Shown here: in pieces, positions 43,947 through 60,525 of the stretch
How positions within the stretch are numbered: position 1 is the first letter of the stretch
Layout: each line of letters begins with the position of its first letter
Origin: an uncultured Verrucomicrobiae bacterium
GTDB taxonomy: Bacteria > Verrucomicrobiota > Verrucomicrobiia > Chthoniobacterales > JAFAMB01
Length of the DNA: 64,000 bases
Reading direction: 5' to 3'
NCBI GenBank assembly: GCA_963762565.1
Contig: CAVXLD010000003.1
Location: 448,001-512,000 of the forward strand
The notes under the pieces: model-generated
The model's input: only the letters and a program-made list of their open reading frames with translations
Database searches by the model: none
What the model was told of the DNA's origin: nothing
Made by a program: the position numbers and the translations under genes

Positions 43947-43949
43947 ATC

Positions 43950-45562
43950 GGGGCTGTTGCCCAATAGCGCCTAATTAGTATGAGAATTTTGGGTTAGTAA
44001 TTGGAAGGTTTGGCGAAGGGTTAGCTTGGCAAGAAGGAGGTTGAAATCGGGTGAAGGAGCCGGGTGAGCCAGCGGAGCAACTGAGTAAGGCGATAGGCTA
44101 GCGCAGGGTTGGTTTGGGAGAGATGCCTGAGGAGTTTTCTCAGGTTCTGTACCGTAGCAATGAGTAAGTCTTGGATAGCTTGCTTCCAAAGTCCACGCCA
44201 ACGAGAACGCTTGAGCCCATGACGATTGGCGGCGTCGGCAAAGCTCCTTTCCATGAGATGTTGGCGGCGTTTAAGGTCGGCTTTAGCAGCCTTGGAGTTA
44301 GCAATTTTGCGAGCCTTTTCTAACCAGGCTTGATCCCGATGGCGGTGAATGGTGCGTCCGGTGCGGGAACGAGTGCACAAGGCGCGCAGCTTGCACACTA
44401 AACAGGTCCCCTTGGCGGTGACATATTCCCAGGTCAAGCGCTTGGGGTGTAAGCGCCTGGCTTTCATGATCTGCTTGGCGGGACAGAGGTAGGTATTAGT
44501 CTGTGCATCGTATCTAAAATGCTCGTCGGAATAAATGCCCTCGCTTCGTCCCTTACCTCGGATCGACTCCCCCAGCAGCTTCACATGGGCTTTAATCCCC
44601 GCTTTTTGACAGCTAATCAGGTTGCTGACGCTGCCGTAACGCGCATCAGCAATCACAGTTCGCACTGCTTGATCGGTAGTATCTTCATGAGCTTCAATGA
44701 GCCTCAACAGTTGCGAGGCTTCGTCGACCGCACCGGTGGTGGTCTCTACGGCGGTGATGATCTCATGGGCATCGTCGACTACTCGATGAGTCTTATAGCG
44801 TAAGCGGCTCTTTAGGCCGGCGTGTCGAACTAGAGTCGCATCCGGGTCGGTCGTACTGCGGAACTGGCGATTGGTTTTGGAGTATTGGCCAATGGCAGAA
44901 CCGCCGCTGCCGCTGTCCCCTGATGGCGGATCTTGGTCTTGGTCGGGTTCATCGAGCTTTTGCACTTGCTCTTTGGCAGTTTGCTCGATGGCATTGAGCG
45001 TCTCCGCAGACAGGGGCTTAACTGAACCCAGATTGGCATCGGCCTCCACTAGGCTCGCATCCACGTGGATCTTACGGCCTTCTACCAGACCAGCCTCCAC
45101 GCACTGCTGCACTACCCGGCTAAATAGCGAGACAAACACTTCTTTACCCCAGCGCTTGCGCGCCTTGCTCAACACACTGTGGTCGGGAATCTGATCGTCT
45201 AGCCCATAGCCAAGAAACCAAAGGTAATCCAGCCGTTCAGGGATGATGCGCATCAGCTCCCGCTCGCTCTTGATATCATCCAAGAATAACAACAACATCA
45301 TCCGGACAATCACTTCGGGCGGAACCGACTTGTTGCCTCTTCGCCCATAAGTGTGCGCTACCTCCTTACGCACAAAACTCAAATCTAACGCCGCCCTGAT
45401 CCGCCGCAGTGGATGATCGTCCCGCACCCGCTTATCTAAATTGACCCGATAGCTCCAGATCGGAACCTGCGAGTCTTCTTCGTCCATCATGGGAACAATA
45501 CACTATCAAATCTGTAACCAGCAAAGCAATACTATAATGGTTATTAATTGGGCAACACGCCC
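43950..45562 (-). mobile_element. IS1182-family insertion sequence
   Basis: 16-bp imperfect IRs GGGGCTGTTGCCCAAT (43950-43965) and ATTGGGCAACACGCCC (45547-45562); 6-bp target duplication TAAATC on both sides. Confidence 0.9.
44021..45490 (-). CDS. IS1182-family DDE transposase
   Basis: DHPLR.I, G..SVPPE, IKSERELM, PDHSVLS, VDASLVEADA, STTDPDA, ADARYG, CPA...C..CKLRALCT, ERSFADA. Confidence 0.93.
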   Translation of the reverse strand: MMDEEDSQVPIWSYRVNLDKRVRDDHPLRRIRAALDLSFVRKEVAHTYGRRGNKSVPPEVIVRMMLLLFLDDIKSERELMRIIPERLDYLWFLGYGLDDQIPDHSVLSKARKRWGKEVFVSLFSRVVQQCVEAGLVEGRKIHVDASLVEADANLGSVKPLSAETLNAIEQTAKEQVQKLDEPDQDQDPPSGDSGSGGSAIGQYSKTNRQFRSTTDPDATLVRHAGLKSRLRYKTHRVVDDAHEIITAVETTTGAVDEASQLLRLIEAHEDTTDQAVRTVIADARYGSVSNLISCQKAGIKAHVKLLGESIRGKGRSEGIYSDEHFRYDAQTNTYLCPAKQIMKARRLHPKRLTWEYVTAKGTCLVCKLRALCTRSRTGRTIHRHRDQAWLEKARKIANSKAAKADLKRRQHLMERSFADAANRHGLKRSRWRGLWKQAIQDLLIATVQNLRKLLRHLSQTNPALAYRLTQLLRWLTRLLHPISTSFLPS

Positions 45563-45648
45563 TAAATCTTCAACACATTAACAAGCCTTACAGCGGCCTG
45601 GCAAAGGGTCGCTGACTTCAAGTCTCACATCTTGACGGGTAATGCGGA

Positions 45649-45734: not shown

Positions 45735-45947
45735 CTAGTCTTCCGGAACGAGCTGGACTCCGTAGAAGGTGCTGCCACCGTTGAGCGTGGCGCTTGCCGG
45801 GATCACCCCGTTGGCGTTGATCCCTGAGGTATAAGCAACGTGGTATCCGTCCGTGGAACTGTGCAGCTTATCTAAAATGTACCAATGACCGTCCTGACAA
45901 AGGTAACCATTCGCAGTGGCGTAGTCGTTATCTTTGCCCGCAGGGCC
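45735..45947 (-). pseudogene. 3' fragment of an extracellular HAF-repeat-like protein
   Basis: Open frame without start: GPAGKDNDYATANGYLCQDGHWYILDKLHSSTDGYHVAYTSGINANGVIPASATLNGGSTFYGVQLVPED*; begins exactly at repeat site A. Confidence 0.55.
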
Positions 45948-46126
45948 AAAAGGGGTCAGTCAACAATTTCTGACAGTTTGACTTCGTGTTCGTACTCGGC
46001 GAGCAAGTTGATCCGGCCGAGGTCAGGTTCTCAGCATTTCAGAATCGGCATTGTCGCCTAAAACGCCGGCGCCCCGATCAGTTAATCGGGATCCGACGGA
46101 TTCTGTCAGAATTTGTTGACTGACCC
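45948..46126. mobile_element. Site A: mini-element with RAYT-type inverted ends
   Basis: AAAAGGGGTCAGTCAACAATTTCTGACAG ... CTGTCAGAATTTGTTGACTGACCC. Confidence 0.8.
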
Positions 46127-46785
46127 ATTGGTCAACCAGGTGTCGGTTGTCATCGTCTTCTCCAAAGCTGGAACAATCTCAGCAACGGTTCACACTAACC
46201 TTCTTCGTGGATCAAAGCCGTCTGCCTTTGAGCGAGCGGATTTCAGTGCTGGCGGCGGCACTTCTATCATGGCACCGCAAATCAGATGGACCGTCTTGTT
46301 AGTAGGTAACGCTGTCGGGAGGCGTGCGGCAGCTAGGTTTTCACGATGACAGCGCTCTGGCCGGTGGCTCTAGGAACGACCGCAGGCTACGGCACGATAG
46401 GCGGGACCTCGACAAAAAGAAAATCCCTAGCGACTTTGTGGGGCCAGGGAGGGGGTTTCTGTAGCGGCTGACCGACTACAAATTCCACGCACCACCTATC
46501 TCGTCAGGCTCTTACTGACAAATGTACCGGACGGGCCATAGTGATTTGCCCACCCTCAATTAAGATAGCACGAACGGGTCTATAACTGTTTCGAACTCTC
46601 CGCATTCATTTAATCGAGCAACACAATCGAAATTGCCTGAACAGAAATCCTTTAAAGCATCGACGGCTAATTCTCGAAATGGGCCACAGTATTTTTTCAC
46701 GAAAGAGTCGGATATGTCCCAAAACAGTACGACTCGTTCGTCAATGTGTTCTTTATAGTAAATTCGCGCATCATCACCTGAATAG

Positions 46786-47394
46786 GTGTTCGATGTGCCT
46801 TGGCGTGATGGTGTCGACATCACCAGCCAGACCATCTTGGAGCGGCGAGCATTGTTAGAACGCATCATAAGGCCGGGGCCTGGAATCCAGCTTGGCACTT
46901 ATGTCCAGAATGAAGGAAAAGCGCTGTTTCAACTGGTTAAAGAGAAGGGGATGGAAGGTATAATTGCCAAACGAAAAGAAAGCATTTACCGCCCAGGGAA
47001 GCGAAGCCCCGATTGGCTTAAGATCAAAGCTCGGTTACAACAGGAATTCGTTGTCGGTGGATTTACAGCACCCAAAGGCAGCCGAAAGCATCTAGGCGCG
47101 GTCGTTATCGGCGCTTACACTGGAGGAAAGCTCCGGCATTATGGCTATGCTGGCTCCGGCTTCAGCGAAAAGGGATTGAAGGAAGCCGTTGAGCGAATGA
47201 ACCCCTACTTCACTGATAAGTCTCCATTCGTAAATCCTCCAAACATCAAAGAGAAAATCCAATGGGTGCAGCCCAAGCTTGTTTGTGAAATTGAGTACGC
47301 AGAATTGACGGATGATGAGCAGTTGCGACAGACAACGTTCTTGGGCTGGCGGGACGATAAGAAGCCTAAAGAGGTAGTGCTGGAACGCCCGTAA
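46786..47394 (+). pseudogene. LigD-type ATP-dependent DNA ligase, N-terminally truncated
   Basis: Retains FD...ERR..L, EGIIAKR..S.Y.PG.RS.DWLKIK and the OB domain (WVQPKLVCEIEY), but lacks the adenylation motif KxDG. Confidence 0.8.
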
Positions 47395-47546
47395 TCGCTT
47401 TTAGTGCTGAGTGACAGCGCCAGCCGAAGTCTGCCTCCTTACCGAATACCGACCGTGCGGCCGTTGCCAGCTTCCCCAGGCCTGTCACGCCACTCGCATC
47501 ACAGACCCAGTGAGCAGATTACGATCATGTTCGCGGCTCCCTACAG

Positions 47547-47684
47547 TTAATCGCTTAAACGAATGCCTGCTTCCTGAACTTCTTGGTATGGCAATAGCCA
47601 CATTAGGGACTCGTCGTGAAGGTCGACCACATCAATCCGATTATTGAACGAGTCGCGAAAAGCGCACCGAAATCCGGGAATTAG
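47547..47684 (-). pseudogene. Duplicated 3' fragment of the VOC gene
   Basis: 138 bp with 3 mismatches vs 57960-58097; ends 3 nt before site B. Confidence 0.9.
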
Positions 47685-47687
47685 AGT

Positions 47688-47813
47688 GAGACAAAAGGGG
47701 GCAGTCAACAATTTCTGACAGTTTGACTTCGTGTTCGTACTCAGCGAGCAAGTTGATCCGGCCGAGGTCGGGTTCTGTCAGAAATTGTTGACTGACCCCT
47801 TTCGCTTTCTGCA
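47688..47813. mobile_element. Site B: shorter mini-element with RAYT-type ends
   Basis: GAGACAAAAGGGGGCAGTCAACAATTTCTGACAG ... CTGTCAGAAATTGTTGACTGACCCCTTTCGCTTTCTGCA; internal sequence shared with site A. Confidence 0.85.
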
Positions 47814-48756
47814 GTTTCTGCGTATTGAAACGTTTGACGATTACCAGGCGGGGAATGGTGTTGTGCAGGTTCTGTTTCGGAATGCTGACGAGGAAAATCC
47901 TTATATCGTGACGATCAACACCACAAGAGGAACGCAAACGAGCGTTGCCTCACGTATCCAAGGCGAGCTTTCCGAAGGGAGTAATGATTCGATTTTGATC
48001 AAGCCAAATATGATGCCTATGTGACCGGTAGTATCTTCTAGCTGCCGTCTTTCTTGATCAATTTCCCGGCGACGTAACCGAACGCTAGCACCGGATACAA
48101 CTGCGCTCTTAAACGATTCTAGAGCGTTGGTGAGCTCGTCTAGGGGAACGTGTGAAAACGAGTGACGACTTCGCCCACTTACAGCACCAGCCTTGGCTTC
48201 GGATCAAAAGCGAAGGCATTTGCGTACCTATCGACTGATGCCAACCACACTTTCCTGCGCTCCCCGGCCCATTGCAGGTTGTTGGCTATCTGAATTGCCA
48301 AACCTAAGATATCGACCGCTGGCCTACCGCTAGTGCCGATACTGTAGGGTAAGGCTTTGAATTCTCCGCTCGTCACTCCACTAGAATAGCCCAAGCCTCG
48401 ATCTTTAGCTAAGGACTTTGCGATTTGAATGTTCGCTCACGGAATTAAAAATCAAAGGGTACTGAACTAGCTGGTCCAGCATCTCTTTGGAGACTTCTAA
48501 AAATCGAGGCTCTCAAATACCTTTCTCCGTAGCTCTTCGTTGAGCCGATCCAGGTCGTCACGCTGGCCTTCAAAGATTAGCTGCATCAACGTCTTAGGTT
48601 CTGCCGTTACCGGCAGCCGATGTCTTCAAGTTCGACGTGAACCAGAGTGATTTCACGCAAGGGTTTGTCGCGTGCGTCTGTGATCGTGCTGGCCAAGTGG
48701 ATTAAAAACCCAATCTGGAATTCAGCGCCTAATCGACGACCGGCTGCGATCTTTGG

Positions 48757-49284
48757 GTGATGCGTGCCGGGTTTTCCCTTTATCGTTACGTAATACCTGT
48801 AATTGCCGTCTGTTTTGCCGTCATTAGCACGCTATGGCTAGGGCCAGCGCTAAAGTATAGTTCCGCTATCTTCTTTTGCTCCGTGATGTTGAGCAGCTGG
48901 TATGGTGGGCTTTTGCCTGGTCTTTTTGCCGCCGTGCTATCATGGCTCGCTCTGGATTATTATTTCATCCCACCGATTGGTTCCCTTGCCATGAAGCCGG
49001 AGGAAGTGCCTACGATGATCATCTTTGGCGCTGCGGCTTGTTTCATCAGTTGGCTAAATAGCGGTGCCAGGAGGGTGAGAGAGCCGCTTCGACAGGACCG
49101 AGAAATTGAATCCGGCCTGCTGGGTATTGTGGTAAAATTCACCCTAGCTGTCTTACTATCAGTGGCATCCTGCGCCGCAGCCGTCACGACATCGATTCGA
49201 TCCGACTTCTGGCTGACTATTAGTTTCGCCAGCTGTTGCTCAGCCGTCTTTTTAATCATTTTGGCATCCCGAGATTTGCTCTAG
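48757..49284 (+). CDS. Membrane protein with DUF4118 (KdpD TM-like) domain
   Basis: YRY.I...VMLSSWYGGLLPGLFAAVLS.LALDYYFIPP.GSL pattern; no kinase domain follows. Confidence 0.7.
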   Translation: MMRAGFSLYRYVIPVIAVCFAVISTLWLGPALKYSSAIFFCSVMLSSWYGGLLPGLFAAVLSWLALDYYFIPPIGSLAMKPEEVPTMIIFGAAACFISWLNSGARRVREPLRQDREIESGLLGIVVKFTLAVLLSVASCAAAVTTSIRSDFWLTISFASCCSAVFLIILASRDLL

Positions 49285-49695
49285 CTGTTTCTTGATGAGG
49301 CTGCGGTCTCGATCAATCAAGCCAGTCCCCCCGGATTTTCGCTTTAGGAAATCATTGATGTTAGCCACGCTCTCCTTCCGGCCAAAGCGCTGTGGTGTCA
49401 TGAGCAGAAACGCAACATCCTGAAACGATGTTTGCAGCCCAGAGTGCTCGAAAGGTCGGGTTGCGTAATGCAAACCAAGTTGACGTTCTAATCATAGAAA
49501 CAGCTCAGACGCTTTTAAAGTCAATCCCTTTACCTCAGTCATGAGAGGGCGTTTGAAAAGTCTTAAGCTGGGCAGGCTTTTTTGGGGTCAGATCATTCCT
49601 TACCGAGATCCAGAATTAGAGTGCTATGGCGATGCTAGCTTTGGTTTTGGGGCAAGGTCAACTTGAGCCTATGAGTACATTGGAGGCGCAACGGT

Positions 49696-49824
49696 ATGAG
49701 TGGACGGTTCCCTGTCGTCTTTCTGGTCGATGTGGACAATACCTTGCTCGATAACGACCACATTCAAAACAACCTTTGGGAGCATCTCGAACGCGAGTTC
49801 GGCGCAGCTTGTCGGGACCGTTAC
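49696..49824 (+). pseudogene. N-terminal fragment of a HAD-superfamily hydrolase
   Basis: VFLVDVDNTLLDND (HAD motif I), then EREFG...RDRY; downstream sequence loses HAD character. Confidence 0.6.
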
Positions 49825-50507
49825 TGCGTCAACAGCATCAAACTAGCGCATAGTGAGCCATCCCCAGCTCATTCATCGCGAATTCTTAGTCGACCCGTGG
49901 CACTTCAAGCCTGCCTTTCGTACTCTGAAAACCGGGAACGGCGACGACAGGCAACCCGAAGATGTTGTCCATCGTTGGATTCGATACACGATGGGGCTTG
50001 GCCAATTGTAGTGCCTTGGTGCCTAAAATAGCGTCCCTCCGCCATCGGGCTCTAGAGTCAGCGCTATCTTAGTGTGCCCAAATCATCGCGCTTGCATGCA
50101 TCGCAAACATGTCGGCAAACTTCTTGGCGTGCGCGTCATCGGTAATGCCGTGGTTCTTGGCAGCCAGAAGTTACTGCTGGCGGCAGCACCGAACCGTTTC
50201 GGCGTACCACGGACAACGCGGATAGCTCCAAAGCAGGAACTAGGGCGATAAATTCACGGTTACACCGCAACAGATGCTTGACCACTTAGTGCGCGATCGC
50301 CAGCGAACCGAGGAAAAGCTAGCTATTCAGCGGCAAATAAACACTGAGAGAAAGCGAGCGCTTAAAGCGCGGATTGAACTGGCTGCGGCTAAGAAAGAAA
50401 GTTTGTTCTCAACCAAGTTTTCGTCTCGCCGGCCAGCCTCTGCTCGCAACTTTCTGGCCGTTACCGCGTCGACGCGAAATCGCGATGGTTTTCTCGCGCT
50501 TGCCAGG

Positions 50508-50771
50508 TTAAGGCGGGTAATGCTCTGCATCGTACCCTTCCGCGTAGCGCATCGCCTGTATGATAGGGTCGGCCTCTTCGGTTGGATCGAAAAACTTGTG
50601 CTTCGGATGATCGTCAGGAAAAATGTCTAATACCACTCCACCGCCTGCTATGAGAGTGATCTGGTATTTTGGCGTGTTCCCGGCTTGTCGATACGAACAG
50701 AGCCGTTCGCCATCCCTGTCGCCCTGATACCAAAATGCGTCGTTGACAACAATTTGAAGGTGTTTTGCCAT
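50508..50771 (-). CDS. Hypothetical protein
   Basis: 87-aa ORF from ATG with GGGGG upstream; protein-like composition. Confidence 0.5.
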   Translation of the reverse strand: MAKHLQIVVNDAFWYQGDRDGERLCSYRQAGNTPKYQITLIAGGGVVLDIFPDDHPKHKFFDPTEEADPIIQAMRYAEGYDAEHYPP

Positions 50772-51227
50772 AATGCCCCCAAGAGAATCGGCGTCAGTGA
50801 TGGTTAAAGTCGCTGACGCTTTAGCGTGCAAAATACTGGCACAGAAGAGGGAGCGCAACGGAGGAGGTGAGTTGTTCCATACTACTTCCGCTAGCCATAA
50901 TTACAATAGCTTCGTAACCTCCTAGTTTCGTGCACCTTTTTTTGCTTGCAGAGGCAATTCGAGGGAGAAAAACAAGTAAACTAGCACCATACATTATTTT
51001 TGTTATGAGTTTTCTGCCTTGCAATTCTGGAGTTTATCAGAATTATAGGCAAGCCAAATCACTCGGTCAGCGCGCTCGTTCTTCCGGCACAAGAAAAAGG
51101 AAGAAAAAGAAAGCAAAGGGAATAATAAACGATAAAAAACAAGCAAAATAAAGAAACGTTATCTTATTGTGTTGTTACTTCTCGTGCAATCGCCCTTAAG
51201 TTAACGAACACGGAGCGGAGTGAACGT

Positions 51228-51260
51228 GAAAGGGGTCAGTCAAATTGACTGACCCCTTTC
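51228..51260. repeat. Site C: empty 33-bp palindrome
   Basis: GAAAGGGGTCAGTCAA-A-TTGACTGACCCCTTTC. Confidence 0.9.
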
Positions 51261-51369
51261 GCAGTCAATACGCCGAGTGACGTACAGGTGGAACGTTGAG
51301 CGAGGCAGGAGAAATCTCGACACGTCCATTCTAGTTATGATAAACAGGCTGGCTCGGTCGCCATCCAGA

Positions 51370-52038
51370 ATGAGATTCTATCAATATATCTCGGATTCCA
51401 AGGTTGACATGTTGCTGCCGCAGATCCCGCTGAAGGCGAAACAAAAGATCACCGCTGAAATCGGTTTTGATATCAAGATTTTGACGGCAAAACTAAAGAC
51501 TGAACGCGATAGCCTGGATGATCGGGTTAGCCGCCTTCTCGTGGTAGAGCGATATTTGAGAGAGAGCCAACGAATAGGCTCATTGATTGAGCCGGCTCCC
51601 TGGGTTTCTGGTGCCGAAGAGGTGTCTGTTACAATGCCCGCTCCTGGTGCGGTTGTGTTCGTCGGCGACAAAGGAGATGCCTATTTTCTGCTAACTGGCT
51701 CCGCCGACCATCTCATTGGTTCTAAACCGGACCGTGACTTCGGAGGTTCTTCGTTCTCAATGTTGGCTATGATTCTTCATCACGTTATGTTGGATTGGCA
51801 CGACTTTATTGTCCACGATATCGAGGGAAAGGAAGAGAAGAAACCCCTGATTGAAACTTCGTCTCGGACAGAACGGGAGATTCTTGAGCGTGTCGCTGAA
51901 CGCTTTCCCATAGGAAATGTTCGAACGCGAGTAGAGTTTCTGGTGCGAAGACTATTGGTGGGAACGATTGACGGTAAGGAAGTGTTTGTAGGAACTCCAC
52001 TCTACGTCGCCCAGACGGACGACGACTACGTACACTGA
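51370..52038 (+). CDS. Hypothetical protein, DUF7019/SAVMC3_10250-like
   Basis: MRFYQYISDSKVDMLLPQIP...LLTGSADHLIG...EFLVRRL...VGTPLYVA pattern recalled for this family. Confidence 0.65.
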   Translation: MRFYQYISDSKVDMLLPQIPLKAKQKITAEIGFDIKILTAKLKTERDSLDDRVSRLLVVERYLRESQRIGSLIEPAPWVSGAEEVSVTMPAPGAVVFVGDKGDAYFLLTGSADHLIGSKPDRDFGGSSFSMLAMILHHVMLDWHDFIVHDIEGKEEKKPLIETSSRTEREILERVAERFPIGNVRTRVEFLVRRLLVGTIDGKEVFVGTPLYVAQTDDDYVH

Positions 52039-52090
52039 ACTTCGTCGGCGCGCCGAATCGGTCAAACATAACCGGTTAGCGGAGGAGAAC

Positions 52091-52133
52091 AAAAGGGGTC
52101 AGTCAATTTGACTGACCCCTTTCGCTTTCTGCA
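52091..52133. repeat. Site D: empty palindrome with right flank
   Basis: AAAAGGGGTCAGTCAA-T-TTGACTGACCCCTTT-CGCTTTCTGCA. Confidence 0.9.
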
Positions 52134-52135
52134 CC

Positions 52136-52456
52136 CTACGGCTTTTCGATCATGTAGTAAGACTTAAGGCGGCCATCTACGAACTCAAAACGATAGAATT
52201 GTTTGCTAAGATTCAAAGATCGTAGCATGCCGCTGTACATCGCGGCCCGAACTTGATCAGTTGCCAAATCGTAGATCAAAATCTCAGCGCCATCGTGAAG
52301 TTCCCTGCCATAGGGTTCGCCAAGAATGCTTATAACTTCGTCCTCGCTCATTCCGGCATGCACCGTCCCCAGGCTTGTGACAGGTGTCGCGCACCCTGTC
52401 AGGATCACCAGAGCAAAAGGCAACGCCAAGAACGGTAAGCGCAAGAGCGTTTTCAT
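52136..52456 (-). CDS. Small lipoprotein, SmpA/BamE-like domain
   Basis: Lipobox LTGC after a hydrophobic leader; GMSEDEVISILGEP motif. Confidence 0.75.
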   Translation of the reverse strand: MKTLLRLPFLALPFALVILTGCATPVTSLGTVHAGMSEDEVISILGEPYGRELHDGAEILIYDLATDQVRAAMYSGMLRSLNLSKQFYRFEFVDGRLKSYYMIEKP

Positions 52457-52540
52457 ACGATCCTGACATCGTACCAAGTTCGAAGCCTGCTTGTCGCGCT
52501 CTTCCTTTCCCAACGTTAAGTGCTTGGCTGCAGCAAAAGT

Positions 52541-52586
52541 GAGACAAAAGGGGTCAGTCAAATTGACTGACCCCATTCGCTTTCTG
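52541..52586. repeat. Site E: empty palindrome with both flanks
   Basis: GAGACAAAAGGGGTCAGTCAA-A-TTGACTGACCCCATT-CGCTTTCTG. Confidence 0.9.
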
Positions 52587-52783
52587 TTTTGCAAAACGGA
52601 CAACGCCGCGGCTTGGCAATCCCTCGCCGACTAACCATTTGCCATACGCAGAAACTGTTACAACTGTTCGCAATACATATTGGAGACCGTGCCCTGTTAG
52701 CGAAATACTTCCCAAGGATTAGTAGGGCGGATGCGAGCATCTCAGCGCTCGCCGGACTTCTAGACCTTGGCCGGCGAGCGTCT

Positions 52784-53017
52784 TTATTTTGAGGAGGCAA
52801 AAGCCCACTCCTCAGACCTCCAACAACGCCGCGCACGCTTGATGCGATCCGGTCGCGCCGGCCGGCTGGCATGCGAAAGCCACGCATAGAGCGTCTGGGC
52901 TCTTACGCCAAGCCTGCGAGCCAGTTCGGTCGTCGTGTTGTAGTCGAGGCGAAGAAAATCACAGAGACGCCCGACAACCGCGTCTCGTTCGTCCTTCGTG
53001 TTCCGTTTCCGCGGCAC
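52784..53017 (-). CDS. Small Cro/CI-like HTH protein (C-terminus possibly degraded)
   Basis: TTTELARRLGVRAQTLYAWL....RP helix-turn-helix. Confidence 0.55.
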   Translation of the reverse strand: MPRKRNTKDERDAVVGRLCDFLRLDYNTTTELARRLGVRAQTLYAWLSHASRPARPDRIKRARRCWRSEEWAFASSK

Positions 53018-53062
53018 GATTCGGGCGAATTCTTGGATAACTTGGAACGAAAATCAAGAAAT

Positions 53063-53107
53063 GACCGGCGGAAAGGTTCCTGCTCACCTTATCCGCCGGT
53101 CTTTTTT
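53063..53107 (+). terminator. Terminator-like hairpin
   Basis: GACCGGCGGA...TCCGCCGGTC followed by TTTTTT; the loop is long. Confidence 0.45.
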
Positions 53108-53479
53108 GGGTGGATAGGGCTTCTGCGACCTACCTATGGCTCCGTTCATTAGAGCCTGCAATTACACCTCGGTACTAACGGACTAGTGCTTTGGGGCTAG
53201 GAGAGGGTGTTCCGCGCCTACAAAATCGGCGTCCTGCATTTAGCGCTCATACCGCCGCGCGGCGGCCTCGTCCGACCCCAACCAAACGCCAATCCTTTAA
53301 CCTTTGCGCCGGAGAAAGACCGGTTGCTGAAGGTTGCGGAGGCCGTGGCCTACTGCCATGTGTCGCGCACGTGGATCGACGCCGCGCTGACAACCAAACG
53401 AGCTCCGACACGTCAAGCTTGGGCCGAATACGCGCCGGATCCCGGTACAGGCGGAATAAGCCCAAAACTTGCATCCGAC

Positions 53480-54593
53480 AAAAGGGGTCAGTCAACAAAT
53501 CTTGACAAATGGTATCATGTGACGAACTGAGGGGGTAATGCCGAGACAGGTTCGAGTTGAGTATCCTGGAGCCTTTTATCATGTGATGGCGCGAGGGGAC
53601 CGAGGCGAGAGCATCTTTGTGGATGACAAGGACCGAGAGCAGATCCTGCGAAGTTTGGGCCAAGTCTGCGCGAAGACGGGATGGCGGATCCATGCCTGGG
53701 TGTTAATGAGTAACCACTACCACTGGCTAGTGGAAACGCCGCAACCCAACTTGGTCGCAGGAATGCGCTGGGTACAGAACACCTATACCCGGCGGCTAAA
53801 TCATCGGCATAAGCTCTGGGGTCATGTCTTTGGCGGCCGCTATAAAGCGGTTCTGATCGAGAACGACCTGGATTCAGACTACTTTGCAAACCTTTGGGAT
53901 TATATCCATCTAAACCCAGTTCGAGCCAGGTTGGTCGATCCGAAGGAAGGGGTAGGTTTATTGGACTATCCCTGGAGCAGCCTTACCCAGGTGTATTCCG
54001 CCGGGCCCAATCGCCGGCCAGCATGGTGCGCGACTGAGCGCTCTTTTGCCGCCTTCGGCCTCAAAGACACCGTCAGTGGGCGAAAAGCATTAATTGAGCG
54101 TTTGGAGCAACGCGCCATCGCTGAGGAGGCAGAAAAGTGCGGTTGGATAGTGCGAGATGGTCAGTCGCTGAATAGTACGCTGCGTCGTGGCTGGTACTGG
54201 GGCGGTGAAGCGTTTAGGCAAAAGCTGTTGGATTTGGCGGCAGAACCATTGAGCAGGCTACGTAATCGCAACCGGCGTGCCACTCGTCAATGGCGCGATC
54301 ACGCCCAAGTTAGCGCCAGCGACTTAATTCGCCAGGGACTCGAGGCGCTTGGCCTGAGCGAGGACCAACTTAAAGCCAGTAAAGGCAGCGAAACCCGGAA
54401 GGTGAGTCTCGCATGGGCGATAGCCCGTTCGACCACGATGAGTCAAAGCTGGATTGCCGATCGCCTTAACATGCGCAGCGCGGCAAATGTTAGCCAGCAG
54501 GTGCGGCGATTCGAAAGAGAGCTGAAAGGTCAGAGCGACTCGCGAATTAAAGGATGGGTCAAGATTGTCAAGAATTGTTGACTGACCCCTTTT
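53480..54593 (+). mobile_element. RAYT element bounded by 29-bp inverted repeats (sites F and G)
   Basis: AAAAGGGGTCAGTCAACAAATCTTGACAA (53480-53508) vs TTGTCAAGAATTGTTGACTGACCCCTTTT (54565-54593), 1 mismatch. Confidence 0.85.
53538..54581 (+). CDS. REP-associated tyrosine transposase (RAYT; HUH Y1, IS200-like fold) with C-terminal HTH-like extension
   Basis: MPR..R.EYPGAFYHVMARG, HUH motif LMSNHYH, GHVFGGRYKA, catalytic YIHLNPVRA, YPWSS; C-terminal WIADRLNMRSAANVSQ. Confidence 0.92.
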   Translation: MPRQVRVEYPGAFYHVMARGDRGESIFVDDKDREQILRSLGQVCAKTGWRIHAWVLMSNHYHWLVETPQPNLVAGMRWVQNTYTRRLNHRHKLWGHVFGGRYKAVLIENDLDSDYFANLWDYIHLNPVRARLVDPKEGVGLLDYPWSSLTQVYSAGPNRRPAWCATERSFAAFGLKDTVSGRKALIERLEQRAIAEEAEKCGWIVRDGQSLNSTLRRGWYWGGEAFRQKLLDLAAEPLSRLRNRNRRATRQWRDHAQVSASDLIRQGLEALGLSEDQLKASKGSETRKVSLAWAIARSTTMSQSWIADRLNMRSAANVSQQVRRFERELKGQSDSRIKGWVKIVKNC

Positions 54594-54601
54594 GACCCCT
54601 T

Positions 54602-54729
54602 GGTGCGGCGATTCGAAAGAGAGCTGAAAGGTCAGAGCGACTCGCGAATTAAAGGATGGATCAAGATTGTCAAGAATTGTTGACTGACCCCTTTTCCTGT
54701 GACTGACCCCTTTTCCTGTGCTTTTCCTG
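54602..54729 (+). repeat. Tandem duplication of the RAYT 3' end with stuttered end motifs
   Basis: 54602-54695 repeats 54500-54593 (94 bp, 1 mismatch); then TGACTGACCCCTTTTCCTG twice and CTTTTCCTG. Confidence 0.9.
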
Positions 54730-54869
54730 GGTCCCCTTAGTTCGCGAAGGAAAGGACGAGACCCGGATAGAGAGCGGGAATGCGGTGCAACCAGAGTGCA
54801 CTAGGCTAATTTGGTGCAGCTCGACATCTGCCTAATTCTTCCACGTGAGCTGCGCTTACAGAGACTGCC

Positions 54870-57641
54870 CTAATCTCTTGGCGCCAATTCAGCTAACAGT
54901 GTTTTATATCGTGGATCCTCACGTAGAGGATCCCACATGGGATCGAGCTTCAAATTGCTGTAGTAAATGCCGCTCGGCGTTTTCGTCAACGAACTTAACG
55001 TTTCAAAAGCGAGGTCAGGCTCACCGGTCCAAGCATAAACAACCGCTAAATTTATCAGAAGACCCGGCCCATCCACTGCGTCCCTGCTGATCGGCAACAT
55101 ATCTACGGCACGTTTGCCTTCCGCAGTCGCGTCTTGTTTCTTCCCCAAGAGAGCATCGACCACAGCCAATTGGGTGAGCAACTTAGCTTTCGCATCCCCT
55201 TGTGACTCCTGGACCCTCTGATTTAATTGTTCCCGTGTTTCCGCAAAGCCAAAATTGTCGTCCGGCTGTTGTCCCTGCATTCGGGCAATAAGAATGAGAT
55301 AACACCCAGCCGGAACCGGCACCTCCATATAAGCAAAACCACCTTCGTCATCACCGCCCTTCAACTCCTCGACCAGTCTAATTGCCTGGTGCCAATCACG
55401 ATCATATAACGCGCAGCCCAGGCGCCAGGTGACAACATCCCGATCCTCTGCTATCGACAGCGGAAGCGCCGCAAGCGCCGAACGCAACGCAGTACCGTCT
55501 CCTGTGTTGGCTAAGGTTACATAATACGCCTTTAGAACCTTGAGTTCTGGGTGATCGGGAGCGAGATCGATCGCCCGATCGTACGCCTCTCCGGCGGCAG
55601 AAAGCTGACGCGCCATCTGAAGCGAATTTGGCAACTCAGTCATCGGATTGCGTGGGTCGAGAGTGATCGCTGCTTTCAATTCCTGAATTGCTTTTTCAAA
55701 GTTGCCCTGCCGGCGATCCATCAATGCCTGGAGAGTCATCACCTCAGTGTTATTGGGCATACCGCGCCTGGCGATGGCTAGCTGCACGCGCGCCCTTTCG
55801 TAATCACGATAGCTGACATAAAGGTGGTGGGCATACGCATAGTGCACTTCTGGAAGGTCGGGTTGCAAGCGCAGCGCGTTGTTCACCGCTGTATCTCCCA
55901 AGGAGCGTCGATTAGGAGTCGGATCGTGCCTATAAAGACCATCGTGCACGTAAGCCTCCGCGCAGTAGGCGAGCGTGAACTTCGGGTCGAGTTGTACCGC
56001 CTGATCAAGTAAATTTATCGCATCGCGAAGTGGCTTTTCATAGCCCGTCAGGACAGCGTTAACATCTGCATAGTCGATCAATTCCTTTGCCCGTAGGTAA
56101 AGATCGTACGCTTCGAGATTTTCTGTTAGCTTCGCTTCAATGCTCTGCTTCTCTTGCGGAGAAAGCGTAGCGGTCAACTTGGTGGCGATGGTCTGAGCTA
56201 CTTCGCTCTGAATGGCGAAAATATCAGTCAGATCCCGGTCATAGCTCTCGGACCAGAGAGCTTGGTCTGTTAGAGCATTGACAAGCCGAATTGTAATTCG
56301 AACGCGATTATCTTCTCTTCTCACGGTACCCTCGACAACATTAGCTACTCCGAGCACGCGAGCGATTGACCGCAGGTCCCGCGCTCCAGTAGGGCGAAAT
56401 GTCATTACCGAGGTCCGACTGATTACCTTGAGTTGGGATACTTTGGCGAGGCTGGATAGAATCTCGTCGTGAATACCGTCTGCAAAGTAACTGTTGCGGG
56501 GACCGCGGCTAAGCGTCTCAAATGGCAAAACGGCAATACTTCTCTTTCGAGCTCTGGGTACAGGCTGTTCTTTTGCTTGAGAGCCAAGCCTTTGCGTAGG
56601 ACTCGCCAACAGCTTTCGTCGTCCAATAGTGCGCCTACCCTTCGCGGACGTTTTCGATAGCGCGTTCGAGAGTTCTTTCGGGGTCTGAAAGCGCTTTGTA
56701 GGATCTTTCTCAAGAAGCCTCTCGATGAGATCAACCACCGGACCGTGGAACGCGGCAAGTTGCTCAATGGGGAAGCGTTTGTATAGATGTTGGTACATAA
56801 GCTCAGGCACAGATCCCGTAAATGGAACTTTGTCGGTGAGCATGTTCCAAAGCACTATGCCCAGCGAATAAAGGTCAGAACGGATATCTACTGCGAGGCC
56901 GGCAAATTGCTCTGGACTTGCGAACGCTGGTGTTCCAATAAAAGCGCCCGCCGTGGAAACAACTGCATCGGCTGGCTCGATAGCTACCTTGGCGAGGCCA
57001 AGGTCGATAATCTTCGCACTGGTAGATCCCCCGTTCTTCATTGCAACCATGACATTGCTAGGTTTGATGTCGCGGTGAACGAGACCTCTTTCATGGATCG
57101 CGCCCAAACCTGCTGCGACTTGAGTTGCGATTTCCAATGCGAGCTTTACTTCAAGCCTGCCAGAGCGTTTGATGAGATTCTCCAGAGTCTCACCCTCTAC
57201 AAACTCCATCGCGTAGAAGTAGCTAGTGACGCTCTTTCCGAGGTGAAATACAGAAGCAACGTTCGGATGCCGTACACTTGCCGCCGCCCGTGCCTCTCGT
57301 ACGAATCGTCGCCGGGCTGATTCGTCGCCAAGAAGCCGCGAGTTGATCACCTTCAACGCCACGACGGTTTGGAGATTCACATCGATCGCCTTATAGGTCA
57401 CTCCCATAGCGCCTCGACCTAGTTCAAGCGGCTTTCCATCCTCGCGAGTAACAAGCTGGTAGTGTTCAAACCGAAAATCCGGCGACAAACCAGTCGGGTC
57501 TAAATGTAACTCGGTGGTCGCGGCTTGGTCGGCGAGGGCACCCCGGAAAGCGCAAACCGGACAAAGCCCTAAGCCGTCGACAATTTGCGCCCCACAAATG
57601 GGGCAGACGCGTCTCGATTCTTGTTCCACAAACTCAACCAC
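54870..57641 (-). CDS. Hanks-type Ser/Thr protein kinase with TolB-like/FlgO and TPR regions
   Basis: N-terminal CPICG..CPVC, LGRGAMG.TY, VALK, HRDIKPSN, DLGLAK, GTPAFASPEQ, SIAVLPF..., TPR-like helices. Confidence 0.92.
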   Translation of the reverse strand: MVEFVEQESRRVCPICGAQIVDGLGLCPVCAFRGALADQAATTELHLDPTGLSPDFRFEHYQLVTREDGKPLELGRGAMGVTYKAIDVNLQTVVALKVINSRLLGDESARRRFVREARAAASVRHPNVASVFHLGKSVTSYFYAMEFVEGETLENLIKRSGRLEVKLALEIATQVAAGLGAIHERGLVHRDIKPSNVMVAMKNGGSTSAKIIDLGLAKVAIEPADAVVSTAGAFIGTPAFASPEQFAGLAVDIRSDLYSLGIVLWNMLTDKVPFTGSVPELMYQHLYKRFPIEQLAAFHGPVVDLIERLLEKDPTKRFQTPKELSNALSKTSAKGRRTIGRRKLLASPTQRLGSQAKEQPVPRARKRSIAVLPFETLSRGPRNSYFADGIHDEILSSLAKVSQLKVISRTSVMTFRPTGARDLRSIARVLGVANVVEGTVRREDNRVRITIRLVNALTDQALWSESYDRDLTDIFAIQSEVAQTIATKLTATLSPQEKQSIEAKLTENLEAYDLYLRAKELIDYADVNAVLTGYEKPLRDAINLLDQAVQLDPKFTLAYCAEAYVHDGLYRHDPTPNRRSLGDTAVNNALRLQPDLPEVHYAYAHHLYVSYRDYERARVQLAIARRGMPNNTEVMTLQALMDRRQGNFEKAIQELKAAITLDPRNPMTELPNSLQMARQLSAAGEAYDRAIDLAPDHPELKVLKAYYVTLANTGDGTALRSALAALPLSIAEDRDVVTWRLGCALYDRDWHQAIRLVEELKGGDDEGGFAYMEVPVPAGCYLILIARMQGQQPDDNFGFAETREQLNQRVQESQGDAKAKLLTQLAVVDALLGKKQDATAEGKRAVDMLPISRDAVDGPGLLINLAVVYAWTGEPDLAFETLSSLTKTPSGIYYSNLKLDPMWDPLREDPRYKTLLAELAPRD

Positions 57642-57959
57642 GGTTTTTCGGACAGGAGAGTAATATATTCCCGTTTATCTACCGTCCTTCCAATCCGTAC
57701 TCGGTTCGTCCGAAATCTTCAAAGCTGATCAAGAGACAACGCGTTCTAGACGAGAAAAGCTGCAAATGTCGTTTTTGATGGTCGCATTTTCGTTTCAAGC
57801 GCTGTTTGCTACGGAAAACGGCAAAGACTCTTACAACCAAATAGAACTGGCTGCTCTGATCAGGGAGGAAGAGGGCCAAGATATGGACAAACTTCCCGTG
57901 CCTGGCGAAGTGGAGCGTTATACTGGTATTCGGTTTGATCTCGGATGCCTGCGTAAAGC

Positions 57960-58370
57960 TTAATCGCTGAAACGAATGCCTGCTTCCTGAACTTCTTGGT
58001 ATGGCAATAGCCACACTAGGGACTCGTCGTGAAGGTCGACCACATCAATCCGATTATTGAACGGGTCGCGAAAAGCGCACCGAAATCCGGGAATTAGTTG
58101 TAACCCGTATTTCTGCGTGACTTTGTCTCTCACCTCCGCGAGTTGCCGCTCATCCCGAACAATTAGGCCAAAATGCCAGCCGCCCTTGTCGCGAACCTGA
58201 TCAACCTGGGTCATAGCGAGAAACTGATGATTCCCGAGCTTGAAAAACGCATTACCTTCGCCACGCGACTTAAGTTTAAGTTCGAAGACGTCCTCGTAAA
58301 ACGCTTGCGCCTTTGCAAGATCATCAACCTCGATCGCCACGTGATTGCACCCATAGACTTGAACGCTCAT
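57960..58370 (-). CDS. VOC/glyoxalase-family protein
   Basis: NHVAIEVDDL.KA.AFYEDVF, HFGL, FRDPFNNRID. Confidence 0.88.
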   Translation of the reverse strand: MSVQVYGCNHVAIEVDDLAKAQAFYEDVFELKLKSRGEGNAFFKLGNHQFLAMTQVDQVRDKGGWHFGLIVRDERQLAEVRDKVTQKYGLQLIPGFRCAFRDPFNNRIDVVDLHDESLVWLLPYQEVQEAGIRFSD

Positions 58371-58422
58371 AATCCTGCATTCTGCGCCAATGGCTCTTTG
58401 ATCTCCATGCTTTTGAGTTAGC

Positions 58423-58536
58423 GAGACAAAAGGGGCCAGTCAACGATTTCTGACAGTTTGACTTCGTGTTCGTACTCGGCGAGCAAGTTGATCCGCCCGA
58501 GGTCAGGTTCTGGGCATTTCAGAATCGGCATTGTCG
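58423..58536. mobile_element. Site H: one-ended copy of the mini-element
   Basis: GAGACAAAAGGGGCCAGTCAACGATTTCTGACAG followed by the same internal sequence as 45948-46056; no right end seen. Confidence 0.85.
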
Positions 58537-58721
58537 ATCAAGCATCGCAGGCATTTTTGTCGCCAGAGCGAGATTCAAGGCGAGGGCGCAGGCGAATATC
58601 GGAAGCCGAGGTTGAAAGCGTTCCAGCCGTTGCCCATCGACGAGCGATCTCAATAAGGCCGGTCAGGCAAGGAGTAGCGAACCTTGCTGAGGGCTTCCTG
58701 GACTAACGCGGAGTAGTACTT

Positions 58722-58988
58722 ATGATCATCACGCTTTTTGAAGGACAGCGCTCTGAGACCTACGAAAGCCTCTCTGAGGCCGCCGATGCCGCCAAGAAGT
58801 GGTATTCAGATTTAGGGGAAGACGCTCCTCCGTGGGATTATGAGATTCAAACCTATGATGATTTGCTCGAAGCGATAGAAGAACACAAGAAGCGAGTTGC
58901 TTCTTGGGTGGCGAATAGGGACGACTATTACCCGAAGCCTCGGCTGACAGTTATTGGTATCGACGGCACTCCAGCAAAAGGTCGGTAA
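58722..58988 (+). CDS. Hypothetical protein
   Basis: GGAG SD-like motif upstream of ATG; acidic 88 aa; 3 nt from the next ORF. Confidence 0.6.
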   Translation: MIITLFEGQRSETYESLSEAADAAKKWYSDLGEDAPPWDYEIQTYDDLLEAIEEHKKRVASWVANRDDYYPKPRLTVIGIDGTPAKGR

Positions 58989-58991
58989 TTA

Positions 58992-59294
58992 ATGGGTGAA
59001 ACCGCAGAAGCCATAGTAATGACCTGTATAGAAAACCCTCACAGCGAAGTGGAGGGCCTGGAATCCCGAACATTTTCAGTTCACGCAGTGCTATGCGTGC
59101 CCAAGGGCTTCGAAGAAATATATGTGACCAAAATTATTGAGCCGAACGAGATCGCGAGACTCGTGGCTGCGGAACCAATCCTAATGGAACGCGATGAGTT
59201 CTACTTTAAGACGAAAGCCAAAGTCGAACCGGATACCAAACTTAAGATCGAGATTTCTCTAGCCGGGGAATCCGATCAGCCGTCATCGAACTGA
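58992..59294 (+). CDS. Hypothetical protein
   Basis: 100-aa ORF closely spaced after the upstream ORF. Confidence 0.55.
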   Translation: MGETAEAIVMTCIENPHSEVEGLESRTFSVHAVLCVPKGFEEIYVTKIIEPNEIARLVAAEPILMERDEFYFKTKAKVEPDTKLKIEISLAGESDQPSSN

Positions 59295-59476
59295 TACCTA
59301 AGTCTCCTTGGTAGGAACACATTTGCGCGGCACTCAGAGTATTAAGCTATTCCGAACTCAGAACGTTGACTGGGTGAACGAATTTTGGTCTGTAGACTCA
59401 AACAGAGCCGCGGCAGCTCCAACGGCCGCCTCTCCTGTTATCATCGATCCTTCGGGGATCGATTTGTTTTCACACG

Positions 59477-59749
59477 TTAATCGTGTATTTCAATCTTGAT
59501 CTTGTGACCGGTCTGGAGATCGCGGTAGGTTGCTTTGTCACGGTCTCCCTTGAGCAAATGGTACCGCGTGCCGATCGCACGGATCCCGTCCTGGTTTATA
59601 ATAATCTGAGATGGCACTGTCTTGATCGTCGTGGTCGTAACCACTTGTCCAATCGGCTGCATCGTAGATTGGATCTCGTCTCCTCTACTCACTGTGAAAA
59701 AGCAAAGGCTGAGGACGGCTATTGCTATGAAGTGACTTACTCTGTTCAT
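59477..59749 (-). CDS. Small secreted hypothetical protein
   Basis: Signal peptide-like N-terminus followed by a beta-rich domain. Confidence 0.55.
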   Translation of the reverse strand: MNRVSHFIAIAVLSLCFFTVSRGDEIQSTMQPIGQVVTTTTIKTVPSQIIINQDGIRAIGTRYHLLKGDRDKATYRDLQTGHKIKIEIHD

Positions 59750-59945
59750 AATATTCGAGTGTTTGAAAGAGCCCTAGCGTGTCGGCGTAGAAAACCTACA
59801 CCTCCATTCGGGCGTTCGCTTTCAAACCGCAGGCTGGATTTACGGCCTTGACGCGAAATAAACCTGGGCGCTCTTTTCGGCGTCGCATTTTCCTAGGGAA
59901 ACGCTGCGGATTGCACCCATTTGCTATCGGAACCCGATTTCCAAG

Positions 59946-60089
59946 GGCGCAAAGACTTCTAGTCTTCGGGCACGAGCTGGACTCCGTACAAGGTGCTGCC
60001 ACCGTTCAGCGTGGCGCTTGCCAGGATCACCCCGTTGGCGTTGGTCCCTGATGTATAAGCAACGTGGTATCCGTCCGCGGAACTGTGCA
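59946..60089 (-). pseudogene. Second copy of the HAF-like 3' gene fragment
   Basis: 144 bp with 8 mismatches vs 45722-45865. Confidence 0.85.
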
Positions 60090-60176
60090 TCCGACCAATG
60101 CTTCTTTTGCGGTTTGAACCTTTGAAGGCAGTCAGAACGAGGGGCAATTTACTGGCTCGCAATTATTACCGGCTGT

Positions 60177-60437
60177 TTGTTAGCATTCCAAACGATGCCA
60201 ATTCGTTATAGAGAAGTTCTTGAGCACATGAAGGGCTTTCTAGCCGCGTACCCTTTAGGTTTTCAGGCTGATGAGACCGGCCAGCGAAACATTGTCGCGG
60301 ACAGAAACGGTTACCGGCTCGGAGAATCGGTCGATCCAAAGGTAGTCGAAGAAATGGTTAAAGGCGAAAACGAGGCTTTCACGAATAGCATGGAGCGTAA
60401 ATCTTTTCGCCAATTGCTCGCAATGTTTGCTGGATGA
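60177..60437 (+). CDS. Hypothetical protein
   Basis: Protein-like 80-86 aa ORF; no motif recognised. Confidence 0.4.
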   Translation: MLAFQTMPIRYREVLEHMKGFLAAYPLGFQADETGQRNIVADRNGYRLGESVDPKVVEEMVKGENEAFTNSMERKSFRQLLAMFAG

Positions 60438-60504
60438 CGAGCCATCATCTTCCAGCCAATTGCTTATTCGTTCCCAGATAAAGAACGGGAAACAGAGGGC
60501 CGTT

Positions 60505-60525
60505 GAGACAAAAGGGGTCAGTCAA
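60505..60525. repeat. Site I: left half site
   Basis: GAGACAAAAGGGGTCAGTCAA with no inverted partner. Confidence 0.85.

Follow-up and report, generated by a model that had tools for sequence, protein, structure and literature searches.

What has distributed a set of short, nearly identical palindromic sites among small unrelated genes downstream of a tRNA-Arg gene in an uncultured Verrucomicrobiae bacterium? The sites surround a transposase gene in the right-hand part of a 64,000-nt stretch of the genome (the window; C3:448001-512000 of a 6.12 Mb assembly in 15 contigs), and the original prediction had read gene and sites together as an integron-like array of gene cassettes built by a transposase of the HUH class, which acts on single-stranded DNA (ssDNA). 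Our analysis leads to a different answer, in which the gene and its ends are assigned by sequence features to the published TIRtron class, and the sites are gene-less derivatives of this element that probably spread locally in imported DNA and were then rearranged by recombination. Throughout, C1, C3, C5, C7, C10 and the like denote contigs of this assembly, G000 denotes this genome, and other G numbers denote the genomes of relatives.

The transposase gene and its terminal inverted repeats

The protein encoded by the gene (347 aa; Table 1) matched the Pfam family Y1_Tnp (E 1.5e-9, 38.5 bits against a cutoff of 23), and its matches to the NCBIfam models REP_Tyr_transpos (68.9 bits, cutoff 80) and transpos_IS200 (18.4 bits, cutoff 55) were below cutoff. 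In an alignment of 12 homologues (34-83% identity), residues N59, H60 and H62 of the HUH motif N59-H60-Y-H62 were invariant, as was the motif Y122-I-H-L-N126-P127 (Y-x3-NP), and a helix-turn-helix (HTH)-like block, WIAxRLxMRSAANVSQQ (W305, A307 and neighbours), was conserved at the C-terminus. The AlphaFold (AF2) model had a mean pLDDT (predicted local distance difference test) of 82.1, with values of ~87-92 in the C-terminal helical part (residues 261-340). Its best Foldseek match was 4er8_A, the E. coli TnpA-REP bound to a REP (repetitive extragenic palindromic) hairpin, with E 6.4e-8, a TM (template modelling) score of 0.73 on the target and a root mean square deviation of 2.3 Å, followed by the TnpA proteins of ISDra2 and IS608; by sequence alone 4er8 was a weak match (E 0.33). 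The C-terminal part gave only a weak Pfam match to MarR_2 (E 0.003, below cutoff), and none to Bac_DnaA_C, HTH_23 or HTH_28. Judged from sequence and predicted fold, the gene product is a RAYT-type Y1 HUH enzyme with intact catalytic motifs, as had been proposed.

The recurring motif had also been said to form both ends of this gene, and this is indeed the case, with matches starting at 53481 and 54578 inside long terminal inverted repeats (TIRs). The left end of the element has the sequence AAAGGGGTCAGTCAACAAATCTTGACAA, to which the right end is nearly complementary, and the same sequence in the form GGGGTCAGTCAACAA(A/T)TCTTGACA(G/A), inverted, flanks the gene both here and on C5. RAYT-like genes with long TIRs have been described as TIRtrons and their enzymes as TIRYTs, with ends that share the motif GGGGWSAS (the majority type) and with "moderately abundant" repeat families whose members are single, dimeric or grouped, according to passages of Di Nocera (2013, PMC3733652); passages of Quentin (2018, PMC6006769) place 20 of 26 TIRYTs in TnpA-Y1 subclass 2.1, characterised by long proteins, a C-terminal HTH extension and Y---NP. 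In the window, the outer end of every arm carries GGGGTCAG, which fits the published GGGGWSAS, and GTAG is absent from the repeats. As assigned by such features, and not by the authors' own profiles, the element is a TIRtron encoding a predicted TIRYT, and it largely matches Y1 subclass 2.1. The arrangement had been put forward as possibly new, and for one part of it this needs correction: a Y1 gene with inverted ends and dispersed single, dimeric and grouped repeats is in print as TIRtron/TIRYT, as the same passages of PMC3733652 document.

A second copy of the gene, 97% identical over 873 bp, is present at C5:290633-291697. In it, 86 bp close to the 5′ end are inverted, and a protein search recovers the copy only as fragments. 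Since the C5 copy is broken in this way, the window holds the only intact copy assembled. The inverted joint (53637/53724, on opposite strands) was found in contigs of all four soil sequencing runs of one study, which hold 72-88% of the sampled words of this genome and for which Logan contigs were used. An extra solo right end (289636-289708) lies on C5, 1 kb upstream of the second TIRtron copy.

Right ends of the family are often stuttered, with TTGACTGACCC followed directly by TTGACTGACCCC. Downstream of the element, 54500-54593 matches 54602-54695, with an additional stutter at 54699-54713. Such stutters occur in the window (54680-54713), at C7:630236-630262 and C10:258326-258354, and in G003 (L051, 5780-5814), G016 (L046, 3441-3477) and G038 (L047, 6973-8546), the last of these loci having a tandem run of five left and six right ends. 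These could mark the position of nicking and rejoining, or could be the result of replication slippage.

Derivatives of the element and their distribution

We scanned the window and the assembly with the 15-mer AAAGGGGTCAGTCAA, allowing ≤2 mismatches. The window contained 16 matches, all within 45949-60525 (shuffles: mean 0.11, maximum 1), and the seven sites that had been listed apart from the gene all lie within a few bases of their predicted positions (Table 1). The first 45.9 kb of the window gave no match, in line with the earlier observation that the motif is lacking from the first 45 kb, and an 11-mer scan of the window (≤2 mismatches) gave no additional convincing sites. The sites had been treated as one recurring kind. 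They are indeed cognate, non-autonomous derivatives of the gene element, but of four structural kinds when the latter is included: the 1.1-kb transposase element itself, copies (A, B and H) resembling miniature inverted-repeat transposable elements (MITEs), perfect palindromes of 31 bp (C, D and E) and, in the case of I, a left end on its own. The region thus holds seven gene-less derivatives and one full element.

Genome-wide, 38 half-site matches were found at ≤2 mismatches, of which eight are isolated matches with two mismatches, where simple arithmetic gives ~11 expected by chance. The remaining 30 half-sites make up ~16 elements: eight in the window, three at C7:630-636 kb, two at C5:289.6-291.7 kb, and one each on C1, on C10 and at the very end of contig C2, where another copy may hide in the assembly gap. 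The clustering that had been predicted near the gene is therefore strong, with half of the ~16 elements packed in 14.6 kb of 6.12 Mb around the only intact gene copy assembled, but it is not exclusive, as shown by the copies on C1, C2, C5, C7 and C10. The C7 elements lie in similar DNA (HisKA_3 and other gene pieces), which has three segments in common with the window region at 84-94% identity.

The 31-bp palindromes occur, identical, in unrelated contexts on C1, C3 and C7, and sites D and E have only 43 bp in common, with unique DNA between and around both, which argues for separate insertions and not for tandem duplication. As ssDNA, the palindrome of site D folds at -17.1 kcal/mol (z -5.7), and element B forms a long hairpin (-36.4 kcal/mol, z -7.3). 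No direct repeat indicating a target-site duplication was seen by eye beside the arms of A, C, the C7 and C1 copies and both gene copies, the exact termini being uncertain. The sequence TTAG is located 8-16 nt to the left of B, H, D and C7:630220, and not of other sites; no consistent target can be derived from it.

Probable local spread of non-autonomous derivatives

The asymmetric flanks of the sites had been reported to face one way, and this holds: the gene and all five flank-bearing sites (B, D, E, H and I) point in the same direction. All five have a left flank, GAGACA (B, E, H and I) or GAGAACA (D), and three of them (B, D and E) also a right flank, CGCTTTCTG. Left and right flanks pair in part when site D is folded, and hence look like a degenerate extension of the repeat and part of the mobile unit. 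At C3, C5 and C7 the orientable copies, which on C5 are the gene copy and on C7 the one flank-bearing copy, lie the same way relative to GC skew, and the skew has a positive sign at each of these loci. According to passages of PMC5027513, IS608 targets the lagging-strand template and stalled forks, so that uniform orientation within a replichore and local pile-ups are to be expected of this enzyme family. Hairpin-rich DNA may itself slow replication forks and draw in further copies.

We therefore favour, with a probability of roughly 0.7, a local, fork-coupled spread of the TIRtron's non-autonomous derivatives in imported, dispensable DNA, followed by recombination among the near-palindromic copies. 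IS608 TnpA and TnpA-REP nick and rejoin ssDNA at hairpin ends, and by analogy the TIRYT would do likewise. Insertions would fall mainly in intergenic DNA, with single genes bracketed as a consequence, and the near-palindromic copies would then serve as substrates for the deletions, inversions and duplications that scrambled the region. Candidate products of such scrambling are the joining of B to two unrelated truncated genes, the truncated H and I, and duplicated units of flank plus element. On this reading, the cassette-like appearance is a by-product and not the work of a capture system.

A number of points weigh against this explanation. The element copies are 95-97% identical to one another, that is 3-5% apart, and do not by themselves demonstrate recent movement. 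The C7 cluster consists of three elements without a transposase gene, and nearness to the gene is thus insufficient as a full account. Taken in isolation, the two ends of the full element have little propensity to fold as ssDNA (z 0.5 and -2.0), which makes hairpin recognition at those ends an assumption. The co-orientation comes down to five sites that share flanks, and maybe descent, together with three loci at which GC skew is weak (0.007-0.05). Exact two-palindrome brackets surround single genes or gene pairs in three cases (C-DUF7019-D, D-lipoprotein-E and the DUF3466-like ORFs (open reading frames) of C7:630220-631559), and the two bracketed window genes are orphans among 40 relatives, as a capture model predicts. 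Finally, we know of no published activity test of any TIRYT, and no TIRYT activity assay features in the passages of PMC3733652 and PMC6006769, the two papers that use the names TIRYT or TIRtron.

Alternative explanations

Among the alternatives, it is unlikely, though the least so of the three considered here, that the elements are inert relics, whose clustering is due for the most part to segmental duplication and to recombination among repeats, homologous or slipped-strand, with little or no recent role for the transposase. Duplicated units of flank plus element do exist, in the form of the VOC/glyoxalase fragment with its MITE (47547-47684 and 57960-58097) and of a DUF3466-like piece near A and I (45722-45865 and 59946-60089); both H and I are truncated at non-terminal positions, and the end stutters and tandem end duplications suggest slippage, with the divergence among copies pointing the same way. 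However, such an origin does not account for D and E as separate insertions or for identical 31-bp palindromes in unrelated contexts on three contigs, and the gene itself is intact, with all catalytic residues conserved.

The reading put forward originally, in which an HUH enzyme and its sites built an integron-like array, fares somewhat worse. In its explicit form the TIRYT would use the palindromic sites as paired ends, and the genes between them would be composite ssDNA transposons or cassettes that are excised, shuffled and reinserted; this we consider quite unlikely. It draws on the presence of a left and a right arm in each palindrome, on the three exact brackets, on the co-orientation of the oriented sites with the gene, and on element B, whose two termini are precise breakpoints: the left terminus (AGTGAGACA...) adjoins 138 bp copied from the 3′ end of the VOC gene, and the right terminus (...CGCTTTCTGCA) adjoins gene a′ at about codon 20. 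It draws also on the lack of homologues of both bracketed window genes in the 40 relatives, although this orphan status fits imported DNA and captured cargo alike and does not discriminate between them.

Against this, the segments between sites are heterogeneous (0.4-3.7 kb, with zero to several genes on both strands, plus gene fragments), and just two of the gene truncations inspected, both at element B, fall on element termini, the LigD, DUF4118 and AcrB fragments ending away from sites. No inter-site segment has a second copy in the genome with sites on either side. In the Logan contigs of the four soil runs the same layout is seen, with E, H and I bridged and with breaks at the repeats, as expected for 31-mers; the site-to-site junctions that cassette excision predicts did not appear among 15 of the 33 joints, those listed, in these contigs, which drop rare circles and deletions, and the only joint inside the system among those listed was the rearranged C5 copy. 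Elsewhere the palindrome is mostly solitary: its exact 25-nt core was found at 12 metagenome loci, representing ~8 distinct places as judged by their flanks, and at 10 of the 12 it was the only copy of the family on its contig, including contigs of 9.3 and 15.5 kb. The TIRtron family as described in passages of PMC3733652 needs no cargo. The titles and abstract openings of nine of the ten papers found on HUH with integron, gene cassette and IS200 contain no description of an HUH-built cassette array. The narrower proposal, that pairs of fused-end palindromes let a Y1 enzyme move the gene between them as an ssDNA composite unit, thus assembling islets of orphan genes of which these 15 kb would be a worn example, appears equally doubtful, and nothing in the reads, the paralogous copies or the other loci shows movement of cargo by TIRYT ends.

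Lastly, it is very improbable, although compatible with the other readings, that the palindromes have been kept by selection as bidirectional terminators or insulators between imported genes and owe their position to this and not to insertion preference, since the 12-15-bp G+C-rich stem between an A-run and a T-run at all loci seen, the terminator-like structure of E on both strands and the location of D between convergent genes are set against a simple terminator scan that only E passes (17 sites in total, not above the shuffle mean of 18.8), and the MITE forms and truncated ends are left unexplained.

Related elements in other genomes

The same ends flank homologues of the transposase gene at 35-83% identity in G012, G038, L053 and L055, with variants in L007, L008 and L010. 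Homologues were 75% identical in G012 (same family, other genus), 48% in G038, 74% in L055 (another Verrucomicrobiota metagenome-assembled genome, MAG) and 83% in L053, and more distant homologues have GGGGTCAGTCC variants of the ends. Beyond this genome, the nearest TIRYT (L053, 1654-2694), whose left end is the same, is located on a 7.7-kb contig of a MAG labelled Acidobacteriaceae and is closer than the 74-75% copies in Verrucomicrobia of the same family, which represents either cross-phylum transfer or a binning error. Plasmid records contained only distant homologues (23 records; best 37.9% identity over 67% of the query).

Derivatives likewise accompany these ends elsewhere, with doublets of ~90 bp and MITEs of ~190-200 bp in G012 and L055, and fused-end palindromes also in G016, G003 and G005. 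Elements are grouped at three places in G012 (two or three within 5 kb), in G016 (four of five within 68 kb) and in G020 (two at 5 kb from each other). Half-site counts in the 40 closer relatives ranged from 0 to 30, and were clearly above control in G038 and G026 (13 and 30 against controls of 1; homologous genes at 48% identity), with 12 against 5 in G012, which has the 75% homologue. A sample of 400 other genomes from across the phylum gave no match to the exact 25-nt palindrome core, of which G000 has six.

The surrounding accessory region

The tRNA-Arg marks the point at which synteny with the five same-genus genomes, conserved up to it at 78-86% identity, is lost in every case. These congeners are 70-86% identical and assembled in 350-790 contigs each, and their contigs end or diverge just past the tRNA-Arg; no empty site was recognisable in them for the C1 and C10 copies, where intergenic DNA is strongly diverged. 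In G000, C3:521382-521699 lies ~30 kb beyond the tRNA; its orthologue in G003:C363 and G005:C234 is no more than ~2 kb away from it. GC content between A and I is 50-52%, versus 54-56% in the flanking core. The region downstream of the tRNA-Arg is thus imported, low-GC, fragment-rich DNA.

The gene content that had been noted between the sites is largely as described (Table 1). It includes fragments of LigD (a C-terminal piece), of DUF4118 and of an AcrB-type pump (its final 30-odd residues), a Ser/Thr kinase with TPR repeats, a VOC/glyoxalase gene and several small ORFs without a family, as well as the DUF7019 gene and the small lipoprotein gene, the latter recognised by its lipobox; for neither of these two was a homologue found in the 40 relatives. 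The HTH match is weak (HTH_Tnp_1, E 2.8e-4, below its cutoff). An island of the integrase type was considered and rejected: no direct repeat of the tRNA (≥16 nt) was found in the 40 kb downstream, and no tyrosine recombinase domain was found by Pfam in 53 distinct ORFs of 43-64 kb (the longest non-overlapping ORFs of ≥70 aa plus a few others). A defence island was likewise dismissed, as PADLOC matches only the kinase domain, to PD-T4-6 models. An Rfam scan gave the tRNA as its sole match.

Table 1. Coordinates of the TIRtron, its derivatives and neighbouring features in the window
Feature	Coordinates	Strand	Motif start	Description
TIRtron	53481..54592	+	53481; 54578	TIRs of ~28 bp at 53481-53508 and 54565-54592, enclosing the TIRYT gene
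TIRYT gene	53538..54581	+		predicted 347-aa Y1 HUH transposase; stop codon inside right repeat
Tandem duplicate of element end	54602..54713	+		last 94 bp repeated, then one further stuttered end
Element A	45944..46130	+	45949	full-length 187-bp MITE-like derivative with both arms, right arm degenerate; 84% identical to full MITE C7:636202-636398
Element B	47685..47813	+	47694 (GAGAC 47688)	129-bp MITE with internal deletion; both termini, AGTGAGACA...CGCTTTCTGCA
Site C	51229..51259	.	51229	31-bp perfect palindrome; two outer 15-nt arms fused, 1-nt centre
Site D	52086..52132	+	52092	palindrome with flanks GAGAACA and CGCTTTCTGCA
Site E	52541..52586	+	52547 (GAGAC 52541)	palindrome with flanks GAGACA and CGCTTTCTG; terminator-like on both strands
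Element H	58420..58536	+	58429	left 117 bp of the MITE, cut off internally; 50 bp upstream of intact VOC gene (57960-58370, minus)
Site I	60505..60525	+	60511	21-bp solo left end GAGACAAAAGGGGTCAGTCAA
tRNA-Arg(CCG)	43059..43132	+		ARAGORN, Rfam; left border of accessory region
DDE insertion sequence	43944..45566	-		Pfam DDE_Tnp_1_6, DUF772; terminal repeat GGGCTGTTGCCCAAT
VOC/glyoxalase 3′ fragment	47547..47684	-		98% copy of 57960-58097; ends exactly at left terminus of B
Gene a′	47814..48024	+		5′-truncated, ~20 codons gone, truncation exactly at right terminus of B; intact paralogue C7:626531-626838; homologue in G004
DUF7019 gene	51277..52038	+		between C and D; Pfam E 1.9e-41; NCBIfam SAVMC3_10250
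Small lipoprotein gene	52136..52459	-		between D and E; lipobox LTGC read by eye

Other repeats are present in and around the region. The DDE insertion sequence occurs in at least five copies (also at C1:1112277, C1:1137779, C5:294000, C3:514415 and C8:90453), whose identity of 99-100% indicates recent activity; the second TIRtron copy on C5 has one of them at a distance of 2.3 kb, and another is found in the same ~30-kb accessory stretch past the window. It was rejected as the mobiliser of the sites, its terminal repeat being unrelated to the motif. Just upstream of the tRNA-Arg, a 114-bp repeat (42419-42532) belongs to a distinct, high-copy, REPIN-like family with ~100 genome copies at 80-92% identity. 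A repeat of ~290-390 bp at 61233-61620 has three copies of >95% identity here and dozens at 75-87% in all five same-genus genomes, and the contigs of the four runs contain variants in which internal modules of 27-30 nt (61316-61380 and 61499-61563) are swapped for other sequence. A 150-bp repeat at 53047-53199 with a terminator-like hairpin (GACCGGCGGA...TCCGCCGGTC, followed by a T-run) has no Rfam match and is present in four copies of 74-94% identity (the others at C7:634415-634566, C7:635083-635220 and C4:1750-1881). The DNA that directly follows the tRNA-Arg in G005 (C234, L060, 1-9000) contains a TIR half-site (8514), a copy of what lies left of the C1 palindrome, and homologues of genes from the repeat cluster of C7 (C7:627.5-628.9 kb), which indicates that related, junk-rich DNA with these repeats is found at the same tRNA in another species.

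Implications

The region is a dense example of a little-studied class of ssDNA transposase element, with four forms (full TIRtron, MITE, fused-end palindrome and solo end) together in 15 kb, which makes it a convenient source of substrates for the biochemistry of a TIRYT. It is also a useful caution, as near-palindromic repeats can make imported DNA resemble a cassette array. Mobilisation of cargo, if true, would represent a new route for assembling islets of accessory genes, in the form of an integrase-free cassette system.

Comparison with known systems

The locus resembles integrons and CALIN (clusters of attC sites lacking integron-integrases) in having palindromic sites, folded as ssDNA and in part co-oriented, between unrelated small accessory genes. 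Integrons carry an IntI-type tyrosine recombinase with attI, and in CALINs each attC site follows one co-oriented, promoterless ORF; the locus differs from them in having no tyrosine recombinase among the ORFs examined, four kinds of site at irregular spacing, genes on both strands, and no sign of cassette exchange among the joints listed.

The TnpA proteins of the IS200/IS605 family are small (~130-150 aa), and the subterminal hairpins of these elements are similarly oriented and not inverted repeats of each other. The Y1 HUH fold is shared with IS608 and ISDra2, and orientation and clustering fit the account of this family given in passages of PMC5027513. By eye no target-site duplication is visible here, as far as the approximate termini allow this to be judged, as would be expected of the mechanism of this family. 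Unlike those elements, the one described here has inverted-repeat ends, a Y---NP tyrosine motif and a protein of more than twice the length, which scores far below the cutoff of transpos_IS200.

REPINs have reportedly been described in Pseudomonas by Bertels and Rainey in 2011. With the REP/REPIN-RAYT systems (4ER8; passages of PMC5581495) the locus shares the best catalytic-fold match, inverted hairpin repeats around a single functional gene, and doublets that form long hairpins. In contrast to these systems, the 5′ GTAG (GT[AG]G) foot is missing, copies number ~16 and not hundreds and are clustered and not dispersed in extragenic space, with half of the 30 half-sites of the genome in one 15-kb stretch, and REP_Tyr_transpos stays below cutoff. 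The broken 97% second gene copy and the 83% relative in a MAG labelled as another phylum give the element the look of an insertion sequence rather than of a domesticated gene.

Subclass 2.1, which its authors treat as the equivalent of TIRYT in passages of PMC6006769, agrees with the element in its long protein, Y---NP motif, low copy number and absence of a classical REP beside the gene. Its HTH-type C-terminal extension, related to Bac_DnaA_C, HTH_23 or HTH_28, may have a counterpart in the helical C-terminal part of the present protein, where these three families are unmatched and MarR_2 matches only below threshold. The TIRtrons share with the element a Y1 HUH core with HUH and Y---NP, long TIRs in place of GTAG REPs, a protein longer than a RAYT, and end-repeats located away from the gene, here amounting to ~16 elements in the form of solo ends, fused-end palindromes and MITE-like doublets, with groups on C3 and C7. 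Compared with the TIRtrons of the passages of PMC3733652, the present locus is set apart by half of its copies lying in a single 15-kb stretch around the gene and by three minimal 31-bp palindromes made of fused ends.

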